Positions 4,466 to 27,926 of a stretch of 43,584 bases of DNA are shown in pieces (positions within the stretch are counted from its first letter, which is position 1; every line of letters begins with the position of its first letter). The stretch is from a virus (taxonomy: Duplodnaviria; Caudoviricetes), in the IMG/VR virus record IMGVR_UViG_3300030376_006915, positions 1 through 43,584 of that record. One strand, 5' to 3'. A program made the position numbers and the translations under genes. The notes under the pieces were generated by a model. The model did not search any database, had not been told where the DNA came from, and saw only the letters and a list, made by a program, of their open reading frames with translations.

Positions 4466-5133
4466 ACGAAAGAAACCTTGATTATTTAAATAAACACAGA
4501 ATAGTTTATAGGAGAGATCCTATCTTTGATGAACCAAATGAAGAAACAAAAGAATATAAACTTTATACAAACGGTACTCACGAGTGTTATGAACTGTTTA
4601 GAAGTAAAGCTAAAATAACTTCTTTTAAATCTTTAAAGTGGCATTTGCTTGTGCTATGGTATTTAAATGATCACATAACAAAAAGTATGTTTTTAAAATT
4701 AGGAAAGCACATTACTAACAAGTCAAACGGATTTATTACATTCGTAATAGATGAGGACAGATTAGTAAACATAGTTGAAAGCCTGTGGTCAAAAGATTTA
4801 GACAAACCTCCTAAGAATAGATTAAGAAAAATTATATTCAAAGATAGTTGCAAACTTGATCGTATTGAAAAGCTTAAGCTTGTAGGTAAAGTATTAGGGC
4901 GAGGAAAGAAAGCAAGTGAAAGCGATATGTATGAAGCAATGCTATACATGCACGACGTAGGTAAAAAAATTACCGTTAAATCTTTAGCTACACAACTACA
5001 AGTAACTACACGTACCATTTTTAGGAACATGAGTAGCTCTTTAAAAGAGGAGAAGCAAAGATTAAACGATGAAACATTACAGTGTAAAAAACTACATACG
5101 TTACAAAGAACAGTTAACAGAAAGGTTATTTGA
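4459..5133 (+). CDS. DNA-binding protein with C-terminal helix-turn-helix (possible replication initiator or regulator)
   Basis: KITVKSLATQLQVTTRTIFRNM is HTH-like; basic protein. Confidence 0.65.
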   Translation: MSHERNLDYLNKHRIVYRRDPIFDEPNEETKEYKLYTNGTHECYELFRSKAKITSFKSLKWHLLVLWYLNDHITKSMFLKLGKHITNKSNGFITFVIDEDRLVNIVESLWSKDLDKPPKNRLRKIIFKDSCKLDRIEKLKLVGKVLGRGKKASESDMYEAMLYMHDVGKKITVKSLATQLQVTTRTIFRNMSSSLKEEKQRLNDETLQCKKLHTLQRTVNRKVI

Positions 5134-5830
5134 AGAATGTTGCAACTCCGAAACATCACGAGAAGATTTAATAGAATGCGCAAGACCTCTAGTCGAAGCG
5201 GTAGCATGGAAGTTTGTACTAACGTACCAAGCGTCGGGAGTGATGTCGATACTAGATCTAATACAGGAAGGTACAATAGGTTTGATAAACGCCGTAGACA
5301 GAATAGATTGGGACAAGGTTTATGGGACAGCGAAACCGGGAGAAGAACCACTTATGGTAAAAGGTTTTTTGAAGAAAAGAATAAAAGGTTCAATAAGAAG
5401 GGCGATCGATATAAACAGGGGAAGCATGAGGATACCGGAGCACAGGTTAAACGAAATCAGGAAGAACAGCAGCAACAAGGAAATGGTAAAAGTATTTTTC
5501 GACAGTATCTTTGTAAGTCTAGACGTCAACACTTCTACAGACGCAAATATTTTATTACAAATTCCAGACAACTCTACTACGTACAACATAAATATTTTAA
5601 ATCAATACTTAATGGGGTTAATGAGATTATATTTAACAGAAACAGAGTACAACGTACTGCGAATGAGTTATGGTTTAGATTGCGACAAGCTAAGCGCAAA
5701 AGAAATATCAGAAAAGCTGGGTATAAAAGGCTCAGCATCTTACGTAAGAGTATCACAAATAAAAAAAGACGGGATCGACAAACTAATAAAAAACGTTGAA
5801 CCAGAACAGGTTGTTGATTATTTAAGTTAA
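5069..5830 (+). CDS. Phage RNA polymerase sigma-70 family factor
   Basis: Region 2 (PLVEAVAWKF...LDLIQEGTIGLINAVDRID...IKGSIRRAI, MRIPEH) and region 4 (LTETEYNVLRMSYGL...SAKEISEKLGI...RVSQIKKDGIDKL). Confidence 0.9.
   Translation: MKHYSVKNYIRYKEQLTERLFEECCNSETSREDLIECARPLVEAVAWKFVLTYQASGVMSILDLIQEGTIGLINAVDRIDWDKVYGTAKPGEEPLMVKGFLKKRIKGSIRRAIDINRGSMRIPEHRLNEIRKNSSNKEMVKVFFDSIFVSLDVNTSTDANILLQIPDNSTTYNINILNQYLMGLMRLYLTETEYNVLRMSYGLDCDKLSAKEISEKLGIKGSASYVRVSQIKKDGIDKLIKNVEPEQVVDYLS
5137..5799 (+). CDS. Possible overprinted basic protein (220 aa), in frame with 4459-5133 after a single TGA
   Basis: 220 stop-free codons in the -1 frame of an AT-rich gene. Confidence 0.3.
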   Translation: MLQLRNITRRFNRMRKTSSRSGSMEVCTNVPSVGSDVDTRSNTGRYNRFDKRRRQNRLGQGLWDSETGRRTTYGKRFFEEKNKRFNKKGDRYKQGKHEDTGAQVKRNQEEQQQQGNGKSIFRQYLCKSRRQHFYRRKYFITNSRQLYYVQHKYFKSILNGVNEIIFNRNRVQRTANELWFRLRQAKRKRNIRKAGYKRLSILRKSITNKKRRDRQTNKKR

Positions 5831-7336: not shown

Positions 7337-7367
7337 ACGGGCTCAACACGAAGCAGTAATGATATAA
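7337..7367 (+). promoter_or_regulatory. Early promoter-like motif, copy 7
   Basis: ACG ggctcaac ACG aagcagtaa TGATA taa, upstream of the primase-helicase. Confidence 0.7.
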
Positions 7368-7412
7368 CATTTGACAAACAATAGTGTTAGTCATAATAAT
7401 TAGATTTAGTTT

Positions 7413-9137
7413 ATGTTAAATACGGTAGAGGTTAATGGTTTTTTTGTCGAAAATTTCAATCAATATAATCTACCCGTTGGTAAAGCAGAGAGTGTTTGTC
7501 CTCTTTGCTCTCACCAACGTAAATCTGAAAACAAGAAAAAGAAATGCGCAAGTCTTGACTGGGAAAGAGGTTTAGGTACTTGTCACAACTGCAATAAAAC
7601 ATTTCAACTACACACTTACCAAAGAAAAGGAGGAACAGATCGAGAATATGCAAGGCCTTCTTATGATATAGAAACTCATAAACCAGTAGAAACCAAAGCT
7701 TTACAGTGGTTTAAATCAAGAGGTATATCTAAAAAAACTGTTCAAGACCTTAATATTTCAGAAGGATTAGAATACATGCCGCAAACCGGTAAAAAAGAAA
7801 ACACTATTAAATTTAATTATATGATAGGTGATCAACTTATCAATATTAAATACAGAGACGCAAGAAAAAACTTTAAGTTATATAAGGGAGCAGAAAAAGT
7901 ATTTTATAATATAAACAGTATAATAGGTTATAACTGGTGTGTTATAGTAGAAGGAGAAATGGATGTTTGTGCTATACACGAGATTGGTATTCCAAACGTA
8001 ATATCCGTTCCAAACGGTGCTACACTTAATACAAATAATTTAGATTATTTAGATAATTGTATTGATTACTTTGCTGATAAAGAAAAAATTATTATAGCGG
8101 TTGATAATGATGCAGCTGGTATAGCGTTAAAACAAGAATTAATAAGAAGATTAGGTTCTGAAGTTTGTTATACAGTAGACTATAATAAACATAAAGACGC
8201 AAATGAAGTATTATTAGAGGATCCTAAATCTTTAATTAATATAATAGAAAAGGCATCTCCTGTACCCTTAGAGAATGTTACAACCTTTAAAGACTTAGAA
8301 GATGACTTACAAGACTTTGTTAAAAACGGTTTTAAACCGGGATTTCAGATTGGCATTAATAACTTTGATAATATCTTCAGTACTTACACTGGTCAGTTTA
8401 TTACTGTTACTGGTATACCGAGTAGTGGTAAAAGTGATTTCGTTGATCAAATGGTTATTGGATATAACATAGGTCATGATTGGAAAATAGGTTTTGCTTC
8501 ACCTGAAAACGCACCTACATATTTACACGCACACAAAATTATGCGTAAAATATGGGGAGGTATGCCTTCACATGAAGATATTGATGGCGATAAGTGGAAA
8601 GAGGTCTCAAATCATATAAATGAAAATTATTATTTTATTGATCTTGAAGTGCCATCACTTGAAGCTGTGTTAAGAAAAGGTGCAGAGCTTGTAAAGCGTA
8701 AAGGTATTAAGTGTTTAGTTATTGACCCTTTTAATAAAATTAGAGACGTAGATGCTAATAGTATGGATGTTAATACTTACACATTAGAATATTTAACTAA
8801 AATTGAACAGTTTGCAAAACGATATGATGTTTTAGTAATTATAGTTGCACACCCAACAAAAATGTATAAAGATAGTTCAGGTAAAATTGAAGAGCCTACT
8901 ATGTACAATATTAAAGGTGGAGGTGAATGGTATGACGCGAGTTACCATGGGTTATTAGTACATAGAGATTATGAAAATAAAACAACAAAAGTAAAAGTAT
9001 TAAAAGTAAAGTTTCAAAACTTAGGTGAAAATGGCGCTGAATGTTTTTTTACTTGGGAACCAAAAAGCGGTTCATATATACCACATATAGAAGAAGATGC
9101 AGAATTGAATAACCCTTTACCTTGGGAAAATGTATAG
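7413..9137 (+). CDS. Bifunctional DNA primase-helicase (T7 gp4/Twinkle-like)
   Basis: Zn finger CPLC...CHNC; TOPRIM (VEGEMD, DND, KDANE); SF4 helicase Walker A GIPSSGKS, LVIDP, VAHP. Confidence 0.93.
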   Translation: MLNTVEVNGFFVENFNQYNLPVGKAESVCPLCSHQRKSENKKKKCASLDWERGLGTCHNCNKTFQLHTYQRKGGTDREYARPSYDIETHKPVETKALQWFKSRGISKKTVQDLNISEGLEYMPQTGKKENTIKFNYMIGDQLINIKYRDARKNFKLYKGAEKVFYNINSIIGYNWCVIVEGEMDVCAIHEIGIPNVISVPNGATLNTNNLDYLDNCIDYFADKEKIIIAVDNDAAGIALKQELIRRLGSEVCYTVDYNKHKDANEVLLEDPKSLINIIEKASPVPLENVTTFKDLEDDLQDFVKNGFKPGFQIGINNFDNIFSTYTGQFITVTGIPSSGKSDFVDQMVIGYNIGHDWKIGFASPENAPTYLHAHKIMRKIWGGMPSHEDIDGDKWKEVSNHINENYYFIDLEVPSLEAVLRKGAELVKRKGIKCLVIDPFNKIRDVDANSMDVNTYTLEYLTKIEQFAKRYDVLVIIVAHPTKMYKDSSGKIEEPTMYNIKGGGEWYDASYHGLLVHRDYENKTTKVKVLKVKFQNLGENGAECFFTWEPKSGSYIPHIEEDAELNNPLPWENV

Positions 9138-9193: not shown

Positions 9194-9448
9194 ATGGGTA
9201 CTTATAGCTCAACGCGTCTTGAAAATAAAGCATGGGACTATTGTGTAAAAAACAATATAAGAATATTTCCTGTGTGTGTAGAAAACGGAAAATCGTGGAA
9301 AGTTGGTATAAACTTAGGTCCTTATAAAAAAGGAGAAAAACCAAACTTATCACCTGATGTATATGGTCCCGGTGAAATACAAAAACAAATATATAAAGCA
9401 AGTATTTATTATTATAATAAGTACGAATTGAACACGAAAACCAATTGA
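9194..9448 (+). CDS. Hypothetical protein (start 9194 preferred over 9122)
   Basis: ORF track 9122-9448; the in-frame ATG at 9194 avoids overlap with the helicase. Confidence 0.65.
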   Translation: MGTYSSTRLENKAWDYCVKNNIRIFPVCVENGKSWKVGINLGPYKKGEKPNLSPDVYGPGEIQKQIYKASIYYYNKYELNTKTN

Positions 9449-9459: not shown

Positions 9460-10263
9460 ATGATATACGAAGAGCAATATAGAAAACTACTAATTGATAT
9501 AATAAAAAACGGAGACCTACGTAAAGATAGAACAGGCGTTGGCACAAAAGCTTTATTTCATAAACAATTAAGTATACAGCTTCTTACAGAAAGTAAATTA
9601 GGATTAACGAAAATTACAGGTAAAAACTTTCCAATATTAAAAGGCAAGCACATGAGCCAAAAAATATTTGACACAGAGTTTGAATGGTTTATGCGCGGGG
9701 AAACAAATATTCAAAGATTTAAAGACAATGATGTTCATATATGGGACAACTGGGCTACACCTGAAGGTGATTTAGGACCTGTTTATGGTTATCAATTAAG
9801 AAACTTTAATGGAGAAGATATAGATCAATTAAAAGACCTTATAGATAATATTAATGCGGATAGACACAGCAGGCGCCATGTAATAAGTTTATGGAATCCC
9901 GCAATGACGGAGCAAATGGCTTTGCCTCCTTGCTATTTATATTTTCAATTTTATGTGTATCAAGGCAAGCTTAACATGTTTGTAGTTCAAAGATCAGGTG
10001 ATATGTTTTTAGGCATACCTTATGATATTTGTTTATTTACAAAAATTATGTTATATGTTGCTTCTGAAACGAACACTTTACCTAATAAATTAGATGTATC
10101 TATAATTGACGCGCATATATATACAAATCATTTTGATGCAGTAGGAAAATATATAGAACAAACAAATTATAAAGATGATTGTTCTTTTACGTATGAAAGT
10201 GGTAACTTAGTATTACATGATTATACCCCCGGGCCAATAATTAAAGCAGAAGTAGCTATATAA
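9460..10263 (+). CDS. thyA: Thymidylate synthase (ThyA)-family enzyme; the Asn-to-Asp specificity change suggests a dCMP methylase
   Basis: DRTGVGT, LGPVYGYQLR, SRRH, LPPC, QRSGDMFLGIPYD, DAHIY, C-terminal AEVAI; ATG 9460 preferred because TTG 9445 lies in the promoter motif. Confidence 0.9.
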   Translation: MIYEEQYRKLLIDIIKNGDLRKDRTGVGTKALFHKQLSIQLLTESKLGLTKITGKNFPILKGKHMSQKIFDTEFEWFMRGETNIQRFKDNDVHIWDNWATPEGDLGPVYGYQLRNFNGEDIDQLKDLIDNINADRHSRRHVISLWNPAMTEQMALPPCYLYFQFYVYQGKLNMFVVQRSGDMFLGIPYDICLFTKIMLYVASETNTLPNKLDVSIIDAHIYTNHFDAVGKYIEQTNYKDDCSFTYESGNLVLHDYTPGPIIKAEVAI

Positions 10264-11015
10264 TGTATTACTTGTATCACATTCCTGGAAAAAAAATAGG
10301 TGTAACAACAAACCTATTAAAACGTGTAACTAAAACACAAGGTTACAAATCAGGTGAGTATGAAATTTTACTCAGCTCTGACGATATAGATTTTATATCA
10401 GATCAAGAAAGAGAACTACAAAAAAAGTTTGGATACAAAGTGGATATAACTCCATATAATAAATTATTAAAGACTAAAAAAGAAATGAAAATTAATATTA
10501 CTGAACAAACGACAACTTTTCCCTGTCCGCGTGTTCATTTAGCTGATGCCTTAATAGAAAACGATGGTATGACATGGGAAACTACATTAGGTGAATTTAA
10601 AAACACAGAAGAAACAAGAATATGGATATTAGCAAATGCTAAAAAATCTATGTTTAATAACGAAAAGTGTTTTATATATAACAAAGCATATTATGAAGAA
10701 TTTTTATTCCAAACAAACGGAAGAAATATATTTGATCGTATAAGGGCTTGGGCAAAAGAAAGAAACATATATACTCACGGAGATATTAAAACGCAGCTAT
10801 TAAAGCTGTATGAAGAAACAGGAGAGCTTTCTGAAGCAGTATTAAAAGAAGATAAGCAAGAAACAATGGATGCTATTGGAGATTGTGTTGTTGTGTTAAC
10901 TAATCTATCTGAGCACCTTGGTGTTAATATAGAAAAGTGTATTGAACAAGCTTATCAGGAAATTAAAAATAGAAAAGGTAAAATGGTTAACGGAACATTT
11001 GTAAAAGATGAGTAA
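10263..11015 (+). CDS. MazG-like NTP pyrophosphohydrolase with an N-terminal GIY-YIG-like extension
   Basis: C-terminal QLLKLYEETGELSEA...DAIGDCVVVLTNL...IKNRKG; N-terminal YYLYHIPGKKIGVTTNLLKR. Confidence 0.8.
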   Translation: MYYLYHIPGKKIGVTTNLLKRVTKTQGYKSGEYEILLSSDDIDFISDQERELQKKFGYKVDITPYNKLLKTKKEMKINITEQTTTFPCPRVHLADALIENDGMTWETTLGEFKNTEETRIWILANAKKSMFNNEKCFIYNKAYYEEFLFQTNGRNIFDRIRAWAKERNIYTHGDIKTQLLKLYEETGELSEAVLKEDKQETMDAIGDCVVVLTNLSEHLGVNIEKCIEQAYQEIKNRKGKMVNGTFVKDE

Positions 11016-11265
11016 AAGAGGATATGATTTTAGAGACCCTATCATACAAAAAGTGGTAGAAAAGTTTATATCAAGATCTGATGTAGGTTTTGATAAATAT
11101 AAAGTTACACTTGACGAAGACAGTAAATCAATAAATGAATGGCTTAATAATATACAAGAAGAATTAATGGACGCTGTAAACTATATTGAAAAACTTAAAT
11201 CAGTTTTAACTGATGAGCTTCAAGAAGTCTTATTAAAAGATTATAATGAAAAGGATAAGACGTAG
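11008..11265 (+). CDS. Small all-alpha NTP-pyrophosphatase-like protein
   Basis: RSDVGFDKYKVTL...EWLNNIQEELMDAVNY contains an EExxD metal motif. Confidence 0.55.
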   Translation: MSKRGYDFRDPIIQKVVEKFISRSDVGFDKYKVTLDEDSKSINEWLNNIQEELMDAVNYIEKLKSVLTDELQEVLLKDYNEKDKT

Positions 11266-12103: not shown

Positions 12104-12526
12104 ATGGAATTAAATCAAATTAAAAGTATACTAATAGACTTATTTAAAAATGACTTTAGTAAAAAAAATAGACAAAGACACAACGTGTATCAAAGAGCGG
12201 TATTTTTTAGATTATGTCGAGATCTTACTCCATATGCGTTAACTGATATTGGAGCGGTAATAGATAAGGATCATGCTTCTGTATTGCATGGATTAAAATT
12301 ATTTAAAAATTTTAAAGATTGGGGAGAAGATATATATCTTTCAATATACAATGAAGCTAGGCTTAAACTAAAGCAACGATACGATTTTGCTAATCCTCAT
12401 CTTAACATGACTGTTGAACAAAGATATAAAGAGCTTTTTATGAACCATATAATTCTTAAAGAAAAATACTATAAAACGAAGCAAGAGTTAGATAAAATGC
12501 GTAACTTAGAGTTAATTGAAGGATAA
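12104..12526 (+). CDS. DnaA C-terminal (domain IV)-like DNA-binding protein
   Basis: RQRHNVYQRAVFFRLCRDLT...LTDIGAVIDKDHASVLHG matches the DnaA_C pattern R...YL.RELT..SL..IG..F.RDHTTVLHA. Confidence 0.8.
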   Translation: MELNQIKSILIDLFKNDFSKKNRQRHNVYQRAVFFRLCRDLTPYALTDIGAVIDKDHASVLHGLKLFKNFKDWGEDIYLSIYNEARLKLKQRYDFANPHLNMTVEQRYKELFMNHIILKEKYYKTKQELDKMRNLELIEG

Positions 12527-12527
12527 A

Positions 12528-12761
12528 ATGCCATATACAATAGACGATATAGAAAAAATAGCTGAATACAAGTCATGGTCAAAAAAAAGAAAAGTTGATA
12601 CATTGCTTGAAATAGATGCTGACCTATATTGTAATTTAGGTATAGAGTCTACAAAAACGGAAATAGAAGCTATAAAAATACAATCCAGAAAAATATATAG
12701 ACTTATAAAAACTATAGACGAGTATAGTGGTAAGTTATTATTAAGAAACGAGGCGCGATGA
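12528..12761 (+). CDS. Hypothetical protein
   Basis: ORF track 12516-12761; ATG at 12528 preferred. Confidence 0.7.
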   Translation: MPYTIDDIEKIAEYKSWSKKRKVDTLLEIDADLYCNLGIESTKTEIEAIKIQSRKIYRLIKTIDEYSGKLLLRNEAR

Positions 12762-12958
12762 AAATGAAGTTAGCTGATTATATTGTATGTTTTTTTGTAA
12801 TACTTTTATTCATTATGGCGGCCTCTTGTAGTAAAGAAGAAAGCAATTGTTATGAATACTATTATTATGATGAAGAAATTGTAAATGAATGTGAGTTTGG
12901 AATATGCACACAAACAGTACAAGAAATAACAACCTGTATAAGTTATGAAGGAGAATAA
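12758..12958 (+). CDS. Putative small lipoprotein
   Basis: Basic N-terminus, hydrophobic stretch, AASC lipobox, acidic Cys-rich mature part. Confidence 0.6.
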   Translation: MKMKLADYIVCFFVILLFIMAASCSKEESNCYEYYYYDEEIVNECEFGICTQTVQEITTCISYEGE

Positions 12959-13145
12959 ATTAATTTTAATGGCACGTAATCTACAGAGGTTAGAAGAAAC
13001 AGTAGATCAACTTATTAGAGAAGTAGTTAGAACTCAAAACATGACCATAGGAACATTGGAGGTTATAAAAAGAATGAAAGGATACGAAAAAGCAGTTGAT
13101 ACGCTTAAAAAAGAAAATCAAAAAGAAAGTAAAAAAAATAACTAA
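12945..13145 (+). CDS. Hypothetical coiled-coil protein; last gene of the + arm
   Basis: ORF track. Confidence 0.65.
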   Translation: MKENKLILMARNLQRLEETVDQLIREVVRTQNMTIGTLEVIKRMKGYEKAVDTLKKENQKESKKNN

Positions 13146-13169
13146 TCAGTTTTTTTTCATATTAATTAG

Positions 13170-13367
13170 TCAGGAAAGGGGCACAGCTTTGTGCTCCTTT
13201 TTATTTATACTATCTTTAATACGCTGTTGTTCATGCCAATATTTAGAAGGGTATTTTTCTGAAAGATAACCTATAACACTACTCTTAATAGTATAACAAG
13301 AAACAAAAGTAAGTAATACACATACAAGCAAAAGCTTTTTATATAATGCTATACACTGCTTTTCCAT
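13170..13367 (-). CDS. Putative lipoprotein, possibly a spanin-like lysis accessory
   Basis: KK + LLLVCVLLTF + VSC lipobox; overlaps the endolysin 3' end. Confidence 0.5.
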   Translation of the reverse strand: MEKQCIALYKKLLLVCVLLTFVSCYTIKSSVIGYLSEKYPSKYWHEQQRIKDSINKKEHKAVPLS

Positions 13368-26204: not shown

Positions 26205-27926
26205 TTAATTAGTTAATAATTCGTATTCACTTGATACCGCGAATAATTCTTTTGCTGAAGTGTCTGAAACACTAAGTTGTACTTTGTTAAAAAATCCTTT
26301 TACACCCGATATATCTCCACCAAACAATACTTCATTTGTTTTAGGTAAAGTTTCATTTACAATATACGAGTAATATTTGTTATCTTTCTTTTTAAATCCT
26401 GTTATCATTAAGTCTTGCCAAGTGTTTTCTGCACTAGCGCTTGTAGATACATAAGCCGGTATAAATGCGCCTTTGTCACTGTCTGTTTCAATAGATTTTA
26501 CTGACCATCCTGTATTGCCTTCATAATTTATAGTTCTAAAATACTTTGAAACTGAAGGAGGTTTGTTAAATATTAAATCAACAGTTGAAGCAATCGTAGA
26601 GTTTCCGTAAAAAGAGCCCCTGTTAGCATCTAAATCATAATGCTTATATAAATCATTTACGCCGTAAGTATAAAAGTCTGCATCTATACTTCCTCCAAAC
26701 GCAGGTTTATATCCATAAAATGATGACCAACCATTTATATCTTCATCAAATGTTACAGTTTGAAAACCACTTGTAAAATCTCTTAAGTGTATTGTTATTG
26801 TATCTCCTACAGGAGGTGCCGATGCCATAGTTACAACACCGGTTGAAGTGTTATATGTATAATCTGTATTTGCAGCTAATGCTGTTGTACCTCTACTTGT
26901 TTGAAATATTTCAATTTGAGATATGTTTGTAGGGTCAGGTAAATTAACTGTAGCAAAACTTGCGTCAACTATTGTAAATGCAAGTGAAATCGTAGTATCA
27001 CTCCCGTTTCCAATAAATGTATTTGTTACTAAATTTTCTTGTAATGATAGTACATATTTTTTTCTATTATTATCCCATATACCTATTATTGAATCCGCAA
27101 GCTTTAAATTTGTTTTAAAGTAATCTCGCATACCAAAATTAGATATTTCAGTTATACCATCTCTAGATAATCTTAAAACAACCCCGTTATTTTTATCTGT
27201 AAAATATTTTCTACCTGCATGGTAAGCAAAACTTTCGGGATTTTTACTTATACCATAATTACCTGTATATGCAACAACTTGACCTAATACTTGATCTGAA
27301 GACGTTACCTGAGGGTCTCCCTCTGCTGTAAATATAATGTCTTTATCTATAAGTATATTATGCACTTTGTTTTCTTGAAAAACATTTAAGTTATTATCTT
27401 CTGCAAATAATTTTTGTATTGATCCAAACGATGAATCAATTGATTTTGTATTAGGTATTGAAGGATTAAACTGATTTATTTGGTTTGTTCTTGTTCTTCC
27501 ATTGTATATACCTGAATATATAAGAGACGCTTCTCTTGTTTCTGGCGCATACTCATTATCTGTTATTGCCGCTCTTACCCCAAAGTCTACTGTTTTACCA
27601 TTAAATGCCCCTCGTATTCTTGACTCTTCTATATGCCAGCTTTTTACAACAACTAATATTGATTTATTATTATCAGGGGCTGATGTAAAAGTAATTACTC
27701 TTGTTTTGTTTTTATATGTATATCCTGACGCTGGTTGTAATTCATTATCAAAATATACTTGAAAATCCGCTTCTGAATTAGGTACTGCATATATAGTGTC
27801 CCCGCTAATTTCAGCAATAGTAAATGCAGTTGCACTCCCATTACCGGTTCCAATTACTTGATGCGTAACCTCAGAACTCTTTATAAGAAAGGTATTATAG
27901 TATTTTATTTCTAGTGTTACACTCAT
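26205..27926 (-). CDS. Tail tube/nozzle (stabilization) protein, C-terminal-type part
   Basis: IEESRI, LIYSGIYN, YGISKNPESFA, YFTDK..GVVLRLSRDG and GWSSF beta-propeller-like motifs; synteny. Confidence 0.7.
   Translation of the reverse strand: MSVTLEIKYYNTFLIKSSEVTHQVIGTGNGSATAFTIAEISGDTIYAVPNSEADFQVYFDNELQPASGYTYKNKTRVITFTSAPDNNKSILVVVKSWHIEESRIRGAFNGKTVDFGVRAAITDNEYAPETREASLIYSGIYNGRTRTNQINQFNPSIPNTKSIDSSFGSIQKLFAEDNNLNVFQENKVHNILIDKDIIFTAEGDPQVTSSDQVLGQVVAYTGNYGISKNPESFAYHAGRKYFTDKNNGVVLRLSRDGITEISNFGMRDYFKTNLKLADSIIGIWDNNRKKYVLSLQENLVTNTFIGNGSDTTISLAFTIVDASFATVNLPDPTNISQIEIFQTSRGTTALAANTDYTYNTSTGVVTMASAPPVGDTITIHLRDFTSGFQTVTFDEDINGWSSFYGYKPAFGGSIDADFYTYGVNDLYKHYDLDANRGSFYGNSTIASTVDLIFNKPPSVSKYFRTINYEGNTGWSVKSIETDSDKGAFIPAYVSTSASAENTWQDLMITGFKKKDNKYYSYIVNETLPKTNEVLFGGDISGVKGFFNKVQLSVSDTSAKELFAVSSEYELLTN

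Follow-up and report, generated by a model that had tools for sequence, protein, structure and literature searches.

A predicted dCMP-type thymidylate synthase homologue and a GIY-YIG-like/MazG fusion protein form a candidate cytosine-modification module in uncultured marine phages

Introduction

A ThyA-family gene in the phage DNA analysed here encodes Asp where the canonical thymidylate synthase (TS) has Asn, which raises the question of whether its product makes thymidylate from dUMP or methylates dCMP, so that 5-methylcytosine (5mC) replaces cytosine pre-replicatively. An earlier note, made from the sequence alone, had proposed the latter.

The class of dCMP methylases is already known from Xp12 (listed in the accessible text of PMC5175136), PaMx74 and the MetaGPA work, and the Asp alone is no surprise. 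In the accessible portion of the MetaGPA paper (PMC8670742), 177 and 147 were the two positions that best distinguished the TS of C-modified contigs from those of unmodified contigs, and mutagenesis in which N177D switches specificity is cited. Hydroxymethylases are described as carrying L143D/E and hydroxylases D169N, with L143 accompanying methyl (excerpts of PMC13326640). The available text of a further report (bioRxiv 2024.12.05.627091) describes seven Asp-type TS expressed in E. coli with T4 gp1 kinase and with Xp12 as control, of which five made 5mdCMP and two gave no 5mdC in that test; the tested MetaGPA enzymes had been selected for a linked deaminase. The same text states that Xp12 obtains T by deamination of 5mdCTP.

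Results

The Phage and Its Relatives

The sequence analysed, here called the window, is the whole virus record of 43,584 bases and contains, among others, genes for portal, large terminase, virion proteins, primase-helicase, exonuclease and endolysin. The terminase and portal matched 87 annotated records, namely phages infecting Flavobacterium (Elemovirus), Cellulophaga, Tenacibaculum and Maribacter, together with a single uncultured phage, and judging from these matches the host is probably a member of the Flavobacteriia. Since the genomes of relatives are about 60–68 kb, the window represents a partial genome. The 14 runs that contained at least half of the sampled words were marine, seawater, estuary or viral metagenomes. 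Contigs spanning the region were present in RNA run X15, contigs as such being unable to show transcription, and a promoter scan was at chance (34 hits vs. 34.8 expected by chance). Gene content of the clade was surveyed in 50 genomes picked by length, 32 of them at least 90% complete.

Several other genes of the window were recognized. A sigma-70-like phage factor with regions 2 and 4 (5069–5830, +) was a core gene in 15/15 genomes, and a protein with a DnaA C-terminal HTH (12104–12526, +; PF08299, E 1.1e-9) agrees with use of the host replisome. A virion protein (26205–27926, −) matched the crAssvirus muzzle C-terminal domain (PF25729, E 7e-8). At the place of 12526–13170, relatives carry a class II or Ia ribonucleotide reductase (RNR), which is missing from that place in the window and in its three closest relatives.

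The Thymidylate Synthase Homologue

The TS gene and its context are as follows (residue numbers without further remark are those of E. coli ThyA):

7413–9137, + strand: primase-helicase, heading the gene run and marking the slot (context)
9460–10263, + strand: ThyA-family enzyme, predicted dCMP C5-methyltransferase, type A of the clade (PF00303; N177D and H147Y, with L143 and D169 kept)
9922–9936, + strand: LPPCY, comprising Leu155 (= L143), catalytic Cys158 (= C146) and Tyr159 (= H147)
10024–10026, + strand: Asp189 codon GAT, the specificity position N177 in the alignment to E. coli ThyA

The ORF matched PF00303 with an E value of 6.9e-70 and starts at ATG 9460, with an alternative TTG at 9445. 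The ThyA fold with the catalytic Cys146 and the phosphate-binding Arg set was present, and R21, E58, W80, W83, Y94, R126, R127, L143, C146, Q165, R166, S167, D169, H207, Y209 and the C-terminal VAI were identical to those of E. coli ThyA. The changes were H147Y, C168G, F176Y and N177D, and the Asn177 and His147 that mark a canonical dUMP-using ThyA were thus absent. Loss of the His next to the catalytic Cys favours dCMP use in the Asn-to-Asp mutant background. The Tyr at this position was confirmed, and the motif LPPCY was relocated, as the bases previously given for it (9931–9936) cover only TGC TAT.

The alignment to ThyA and T4 gp42 that had been suggested as a check bore out D177 and Y147, with identities of 33 and 21%, respectively; identity was 27% to the Xp12 and PaMx74 enzymes and 39% to that of uvMED S28-C10. 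Among the best 120 of 504 homologues found (54–88% identical), Asp177 was present in 119, the remaining one being without the region, and Tyr147 in all 120. Besides, a contig from a separate run (X3) covered 9513–10229 with 0 differences. The Asp codon at the canonical Asn position was thereby confirmed, and a sequencing error, named earlier as a possible source of the Asp, was ruled out. A 12-residue insertion (9586–9633, +; around LTESKLGLTKITG) is common to a 267-aa subgroup and is missing in 255-aa type A enzymes.

The best PDB and Pfam matches of the window TS were ordinary ThyA, which suits the alternative that the enzyme is still a dUMP-using thymidylate synthase tolerating Asp177; the N177D mutagenesis cited in the available text of PMC8670742, in which specificity was switched, speaks against it. 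As for the product, the enzyme combines a non-acidic residue at 143 (Leu) with Asp169, which is expected of methyl rather than hydroxymethyl or hydroxyl transfer, and a methyl product is predicted because Leu143 and Asp169 are kept under the published residue rules. The marks of gp42-type hydroxymethylases (acidic 143, RSND motif, no ThyA C-terminal tail) were absent from the window TS, as was the D169N of the 5-hydroxy-dCMP synthases of RB69 and DLP3; the RSND motif and a short tail instead characterize the type C enzymes described in the next paragraphs.

A Slot with Three Enzyme Types or None

Loci were gathered both via TS and via primase-helicase, and 160 were typed, the window included. 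The set excludes contigs known to be duplicates, L001 (nearly identical with the window), L022 (whose ThyA is unrelated and of the Asn type) and 12 more remote loci (33–43% primase identity), and some near-identical genomes remain among the 160. The slot next to primase-helicase held a TS in 153 loci, was empty in five and was cut off in two. All 153 slot TS had Asp177 and none had Asn. They divided into 26 with PPCY (type A, the type of the window), 70 with PPCH (type B) and 57 short, T4 gp42-like enzymes with RSND (type C). The 70 enzymes of the second type keep His147 together with Asp177, and loss of the His, previously taken as part of the dCMP signature, is thus not required.

A quick IQ-TREE analysis of 98 rows placed the three types in three separate supported clades, apart from Xp12 and PaMx74. 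On the FastTree primase tree they were interspersed, with 15 changes among five groups where the minimum possible is four, and supported branches forced three to five changes per TS type. The slot has therefore been refilled several times, always by a dCMP-type enzyme, which is not predicted by a plain thymidylate-supply role. Absence of the module within the primase clade corresponded to two changes, only one of which was forced by supported branches. The no-module sisters nest in the same primase clade as the module phages, and this, like the exclusive presence of Asp in three unlike TS types, counts against a dUMP-using enzyme.

The type C loci (L059, L064, L093 and 54 others) carry T4 gp42-like TS of about 215–250 aa with RSNDLWYGFCND, predicted to lead to 5-hydroxymethylcytosine (5hmC), and no glycosyltransferase was detected when representative ORFs around the slot were scanned. 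That hydroxymethylation occurs in this slot lends some weight to the alternative that the window enzyme acts on dCMP with a product other than 5-methyl-dCMP (hydroxymethyl or another C5 group), or that the base is modified further after replication. Besides, Xp12 has Gln near 143, so that the L143 rule is loose, and the Tyr147 and Gly168 of the window lie outside the tested variants. This alternative nevertheless appears quite unlikely, as the enzyme resembles ThyA at L143, D169, R21 and W83 and in its folate-closing C-terminal VAI, identity is higher to E. coli ThyA than to gp42, and a scan of 135 representative ORFs taken from five relatives of type A found neither a glycosyltransferase nor a carbamoyltransferase.

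Further genes were seen in or near the slot of some loci. A CAP-domain gene lies between TS and the downstream fusion gene in L058 (8581–9006) and six other type B loci. JmjC/cupin genes occur near the module in seven type B loci (L116:6560–7366, 7366–7707), and 10 loci, duplicates among them, have a DUF6445 gene there (L003:13627–14190); oxidative base tailoring is a possible role of these genes, and so is unrelated cargo. A Vsr endonuclease gene (PF03852, E 1.1e-31) was found in one genome only, G003, the closest long relative, where it lies between primase-helicase and the Asp-TS, directly upstream of the latter (L027:7813–8262). Vsr repairs T:G mismatches arising from deamination of 5mC, and the gene in G003 may be just a mobile insert.

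The Fusion Partner and the Third ORF

The TS gene is followed by two ORFs, both of which had previously been read as MazG/all-alpha NTP pyrophosphatase genes:

10263–10478, + strand: putative GIY-YIG/T5orf172-like N-terminal domain (invariant Y5, H6, K11, G13, R21 and E49; predicted beta-beta-alpha-beta-alpha)
10479–10718, + strand: conserved middle domain, residues ~73–152 (matching, in part, 'DNA binding protein'/MazG fusions of Streptococcus phages)
10719–11015, + strand: C-terminal MazG/all-alpha NTP pyrophosphohydrolase domain, candidate dCTPase (invariant EExGE, D203 and GD)
11008–11265, + strand: 85-aa conserved clade gene outside the cassette, kept in phages lacking the module

The pyrophosphatase reading held for the C-terminal part of the first of these, a 250-aa protein with a MazG domain at residues ~154–250. 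PF03819 was found in 78/78 aligned members, with invariant E184, E185, E188, D203 and D207, and the four-helix fold with the EExxE...D metal motif was present. The model of the fusion was built from an alignment, as the single-sequence fold reached a pLDDT of only 37, and its fold matched 1vmg (VIA) with Z 10.5 and an rmsd of 2.8 over 81 aligned residues. Foldseek matches to the dCTPase 6sqw, to S-2L MazZ (7ody) and to other MazG proteins had similar, weak scores. The domain is a candidate dCTPase, its fold being observed and its substrate predicted.

The first ~70 residues, missed in the earlier reading, look like a GIY-YIG domain by sequence and model. The T5orf172 profile matched the N-terminus in 34 of the 78 members (E ≤ 0.5), with a best value of 2.1e-5 and 0.048 for the window protein, and the Atlas neighbour of this domain (0.97) was a cluster in which T5orf172 has a 12% share. 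T5orf172-like domains are common in mobile genes. The alignment-based fold (pLDDT ~90) showed strands at 2–7, 11–15 and 34–39 and helices at 18–25 and 42–55, and the topology of the GIY-YIG family is of the beta-beta-alpha-beta-alpha type. The two strands were present, and the conserved Gly, the Arg of helix 1 and the Glu of helix 2 were represented by G13, R21 and E49, corresponding to the Gly/Arg/Glu triad described in the accessible text of PMC2764454. A profile search of the PDB retrieved no solved structure of the GIY-YIG family. In fold searches with the entire protein, matches to the MazG domain took up the results, and the N-terminal alignment did not match T4 SegA in hhalign.

The fusion was closely linked to TS. 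The GIY-like domain was present in 153/153 TS loci vs. 0/5 empty-slot loci, and TS and the fusion were the only gene clusters found in 12/12 module genomes and absent from three no-module genomes, one of which has a separate MazG-only gene. The full fusion was found in no cultured phage.

No second pyrophosphatase was supported. The ORF 11008–11265 has invariant residues (R23, G27, K30, Y31, QEE, D55 and Y59) and showed no profile or PDB match to MazG, PRA-PH or dUTPase; hhalign against the fusion alignment gave a probability of 0.9%, and the ORF was retained in 4/5 empty-slot loci. It was therefore rejected as a member of the module. A 66-aa ORF (12945–13145) that seemed to be co-lost with the module (11/12 vs. 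0/3) was likewise rejected, being present in the no-module locus L182.

Restriction-Site Footprint

Palindrome counts were compared with maximal-order Markov expectations. The window contained 31 CCGG sites (34 expected) and 98 GATC sites (102 expected). In 13/13 Asp-TS genomes (seven of type A and three each of types B and C) the observed/expected ratio was 0.67–1.29 for CCGG and 0.68–1.25 for GATC. In the seven no-module relatives (G028, G029, G064, MW202828, elemoE, the first 45 kb of Panino and the first 50 kb of phi38:1, module absence in the last two referring to the fetched stretch) the ratio for GATC was 0.00–0.48, and CCGG was represented by zero sites in five and was not depleted in G064 (33/51) and phi38:1 (53/64). 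Among loci of at least 9 kb, ratios below 0.3 were found for GATC in 1/131 module vs. 4/4 no-module loci and for CCGG in 0/131 vs. 3/4. Restriction-site avoidance thus tracks module presence, and escape from cytosine-sensitive restriction is likely; on 5mC in virion DNA the lack of CCGG and GATC avoidance in Asp-TS genomes bears only indirectly. A search for DNA methyltransferases (PF00145, PF02086, PF01555) found none in the 50 genomes, so that the release of CCGG and GATC is not explained by one.

According to the enzyme table in the accessible part of PMC7653180, 5mC-containing Xp12 DNA resists HpaII, MspI, Sau3AI, PstI and AflII and is cut by KpnI, MboI and DpnII but not by NlaIII, and EcoRV and NdeI, but not EcoRI-HF, cut 5hmC-containing T4gt DNA. 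As MboI and DpnII still cut Xp12 DNA there, the GATC release fits only Sau3AI-type enzymes. Some sites were still avoided in Asp-TS genomes, namely GATATC in type A genomes (pooled 19/101; window 1/12), GGTACC (31/63) and, in some genomes, CATATG, which would be expected if C5 modification does not block the enzymes of these sites. Avoidance of GAATTC, and of CATG in G055, also remained and is not explained by the table, in which EcoRI-HF and NlaIII are blocked.

The main weakness of the footprint is low independence, as the no-module sisters need only one or two losses and the remaining genomes belong to phages that are less closely related and infect other hosts. CpG ratio and GC content did not cleanly separate module from no-module genomes. 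For the dUMP-using alternative, the word-count differences would reflect different hosts, and it draws on the small number of controls. In view of the mutagenesis and the slot contents described above, it is regarded as the most improbable of the explanations considered.

Genes Absent from the Clade

The statement that no dNMP kinase or DHFR is visible, and that host enzymes would be needed, was extended from the window to the clade: family A polymerase, the dNMP kinase PF21448 and DHFR were each found in 0/50 genomes. A dCMP deaminase was found in 1/50 (0/32 near-complete genomes), the sole gene of this family being that of L130 (G046:53142–53468), a type C phage. The linked dCMP deaminase and DHFR of the full Xp12/PaMx74 module were accordingly absent as a pair from the clade, the window itself being a partial genome. 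Other polymerase families gave no match in Pfam scans of representative ORFs, and for kinases beyond PF21448 the coverage was likewise that of such scans. When seven genomes were searched for Walker A motifs that might betray a hidden kinase, the only convincing one was that of the helicase.

Exactly one TS was present in 48/50 genomes, with ThyX only in the two without TS, and no second, canonical TS was found. In the no-module loci L151, L152 and L153 (G028, G029 and G064) ThyX lies between two RNR subunit genes, and the same three genomes encode a TonB-dependent receptor of 836–848 aa (examples of these genes are L067:12202–12837 and L068:11777–14284). The restriction of ThyX to no-module genomes could mean that the Asp enzyme also covers dTMP supply.

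These observations bear on the alternative that 5-methyl-dCMP is mainly a side route to dTMP via a host deaminase, with little 5mC in DNA. The single TS per genome, ThyX only where the Asp-TS is missing, the lack of a detected kinase and the origin of T in Xp12 by deamination of 5mdCTP, as given in the accessible text of the preprint cited above, are in line with it. It leaves the released CCGG and GATC sites and the fixed link to the fusion unexplained, however, and the TS is exchanged with a gp42-like enzyme whose product cannot yield dTMP; moreover, the ThyX genomes G028, G029 and G064 represent one lineage. It is considered very unlikely. Given these absences, phosphorylation of 5mdCMP to the triphosphate and the supply of dTMP would have to be provided by the host or by an unrecognized gene, and this main gap allows partial instead of full C substitution.

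Discussion

The observed residues, their conservation, the co-occurrence of the two genes, the folds and the word counts make it probable that the TS homologue and the GIY-YIG-like/MazG fusion, relying on host enzymes, bring about pre-replicative 5mC substitution, whereby the DNA escapes C-sensitive restriction. The substrates, the product, the host steps and the role of the nuclease would be as follows. The MazG domain, recognized by its fold, would hydrolyse dCTP to dCMP and thereby drain unmodified dCTP. The TS homologue would convert dCMP with CH2-THF to 5-methyl-dCMP, an activity suggested by its residues and by tested homologues. Host kinases and the host replicase would then bring 5mdCTP into DNA; they are invoked because family A polymerase, PF21448 kinase and DHFR were not found in the clade. 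One point against this reading is that the published in vivo assay, in the text available, supplied T4 gp1 kinase, and no such kinase was found in the clade. Others are the near absence of the deaminase that goes with Xp12-type modules and the two of seven tested Asp-type TS that gave no 5mdC. More speculatively, the GIY-YIG-like domain might cut unmodified host DNA, as T4 EndoII does. The outcome would be escape from cytosine-sensitive restriction enzymes, leaving the footprint in genome word counts. The earlier expectation of a C-modified, restriction-resistant genome is thus supported by residues, conservation, slot swapping and footprint, with methyl favoured over hydroxymethyl on account of Leu143.

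The enzyme belongs to a class already described; what makes this a variant system is the arrangement of two genes with the fusion and the interchange of methylase and hydroxymethylase. The dCMP C5-methyltransferase of Xp12 (MT664984, 45326–46195) and PaMx74 gp52 have in common with it the ThyA fold, the catalytic Cys, YD at 176–177 and a replaced His147, and in PaMx74 a gene for a nucleotide pyrophosphohydrolase likewise lies next to TS. The window TS differs from both in its low identity and separate branch. In addition, Xp12 and PaMx74 have DHFR and dCMP deaminase beside TS, and PaMx74 a DNA polymerase, whereas none of these was found in the window clade bar one deaminase in 50 genomes, and its partner gene is the GIY-YIG-like/MazG fusion. 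The closest Asp-type enzyme among the annotated phages examined, the ThyA of uvMED MedDCM-OCT-S28-C10 (AP013540), likewise has D177 and Y147, and is encoded in a T7-like genome, surrounded there by genes for dTMP kinase, NTP pyrophosphohydrolase, dCMP deaminase and Pol I. The Asp177 TS of the MetaGPA work share positions 177 and 147 and have PRA-PH/MazG-type neighbours in the accessible text (PMC8670742; bioRxiv 2024.12.05.627091).

The role of T4 gp56 is removal of dCTP. The T4 5hmC system (gp42, gp56 dCTPase, gp1 kinase and EndoII/denA) has in common with the window Asp177 and the logic of dCTP removal combined with cutting of unmodified-C DNA, EndoII being described in the available text of PMC2764454 as a nuclease of the GIY-YIG family by which host DNA with unmodified C is cut. 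T4 gp42 differs in having Asp near 143. In T4, moreover, the functions are spread over separate genes, kinase and polymerase are the phage's own, and the DNA is glucosylated. No paper on a two-gene arrangement with a GIY-YIG-like/MazG fusion was found in a full-text literature search whose scope falls short of most subscription journals.

A broader and rather doubtful proposal is that the fusion is a single-chain 'unmodified-cytosine eraser', an EndoII-like nuclease joined to a dCTPase, and that with it and one swappable TS gene a large marine clade that has no family A polymerase, kinase or deaminase of its own might replace C genome-wide via host enzymes, lineages switching between 5mC and 5hmC by exchange of the TS gene alone.

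If the domain is a nuclease as proposed, it may discriminate C from 5mC or 5hmC and could serve as a reagent. The clade offers a natural experiment, in which one slot of widespread uncultured marine phages holds one of three unlike dCMP-type enzymes or nothing, and site avoidance tracks their presence. If the proposed reading is true, a two-gene kit would suffice without a phage kinase or polymerase, and many phages annotated with a thyA metabolic gene would have modified DNA instead.
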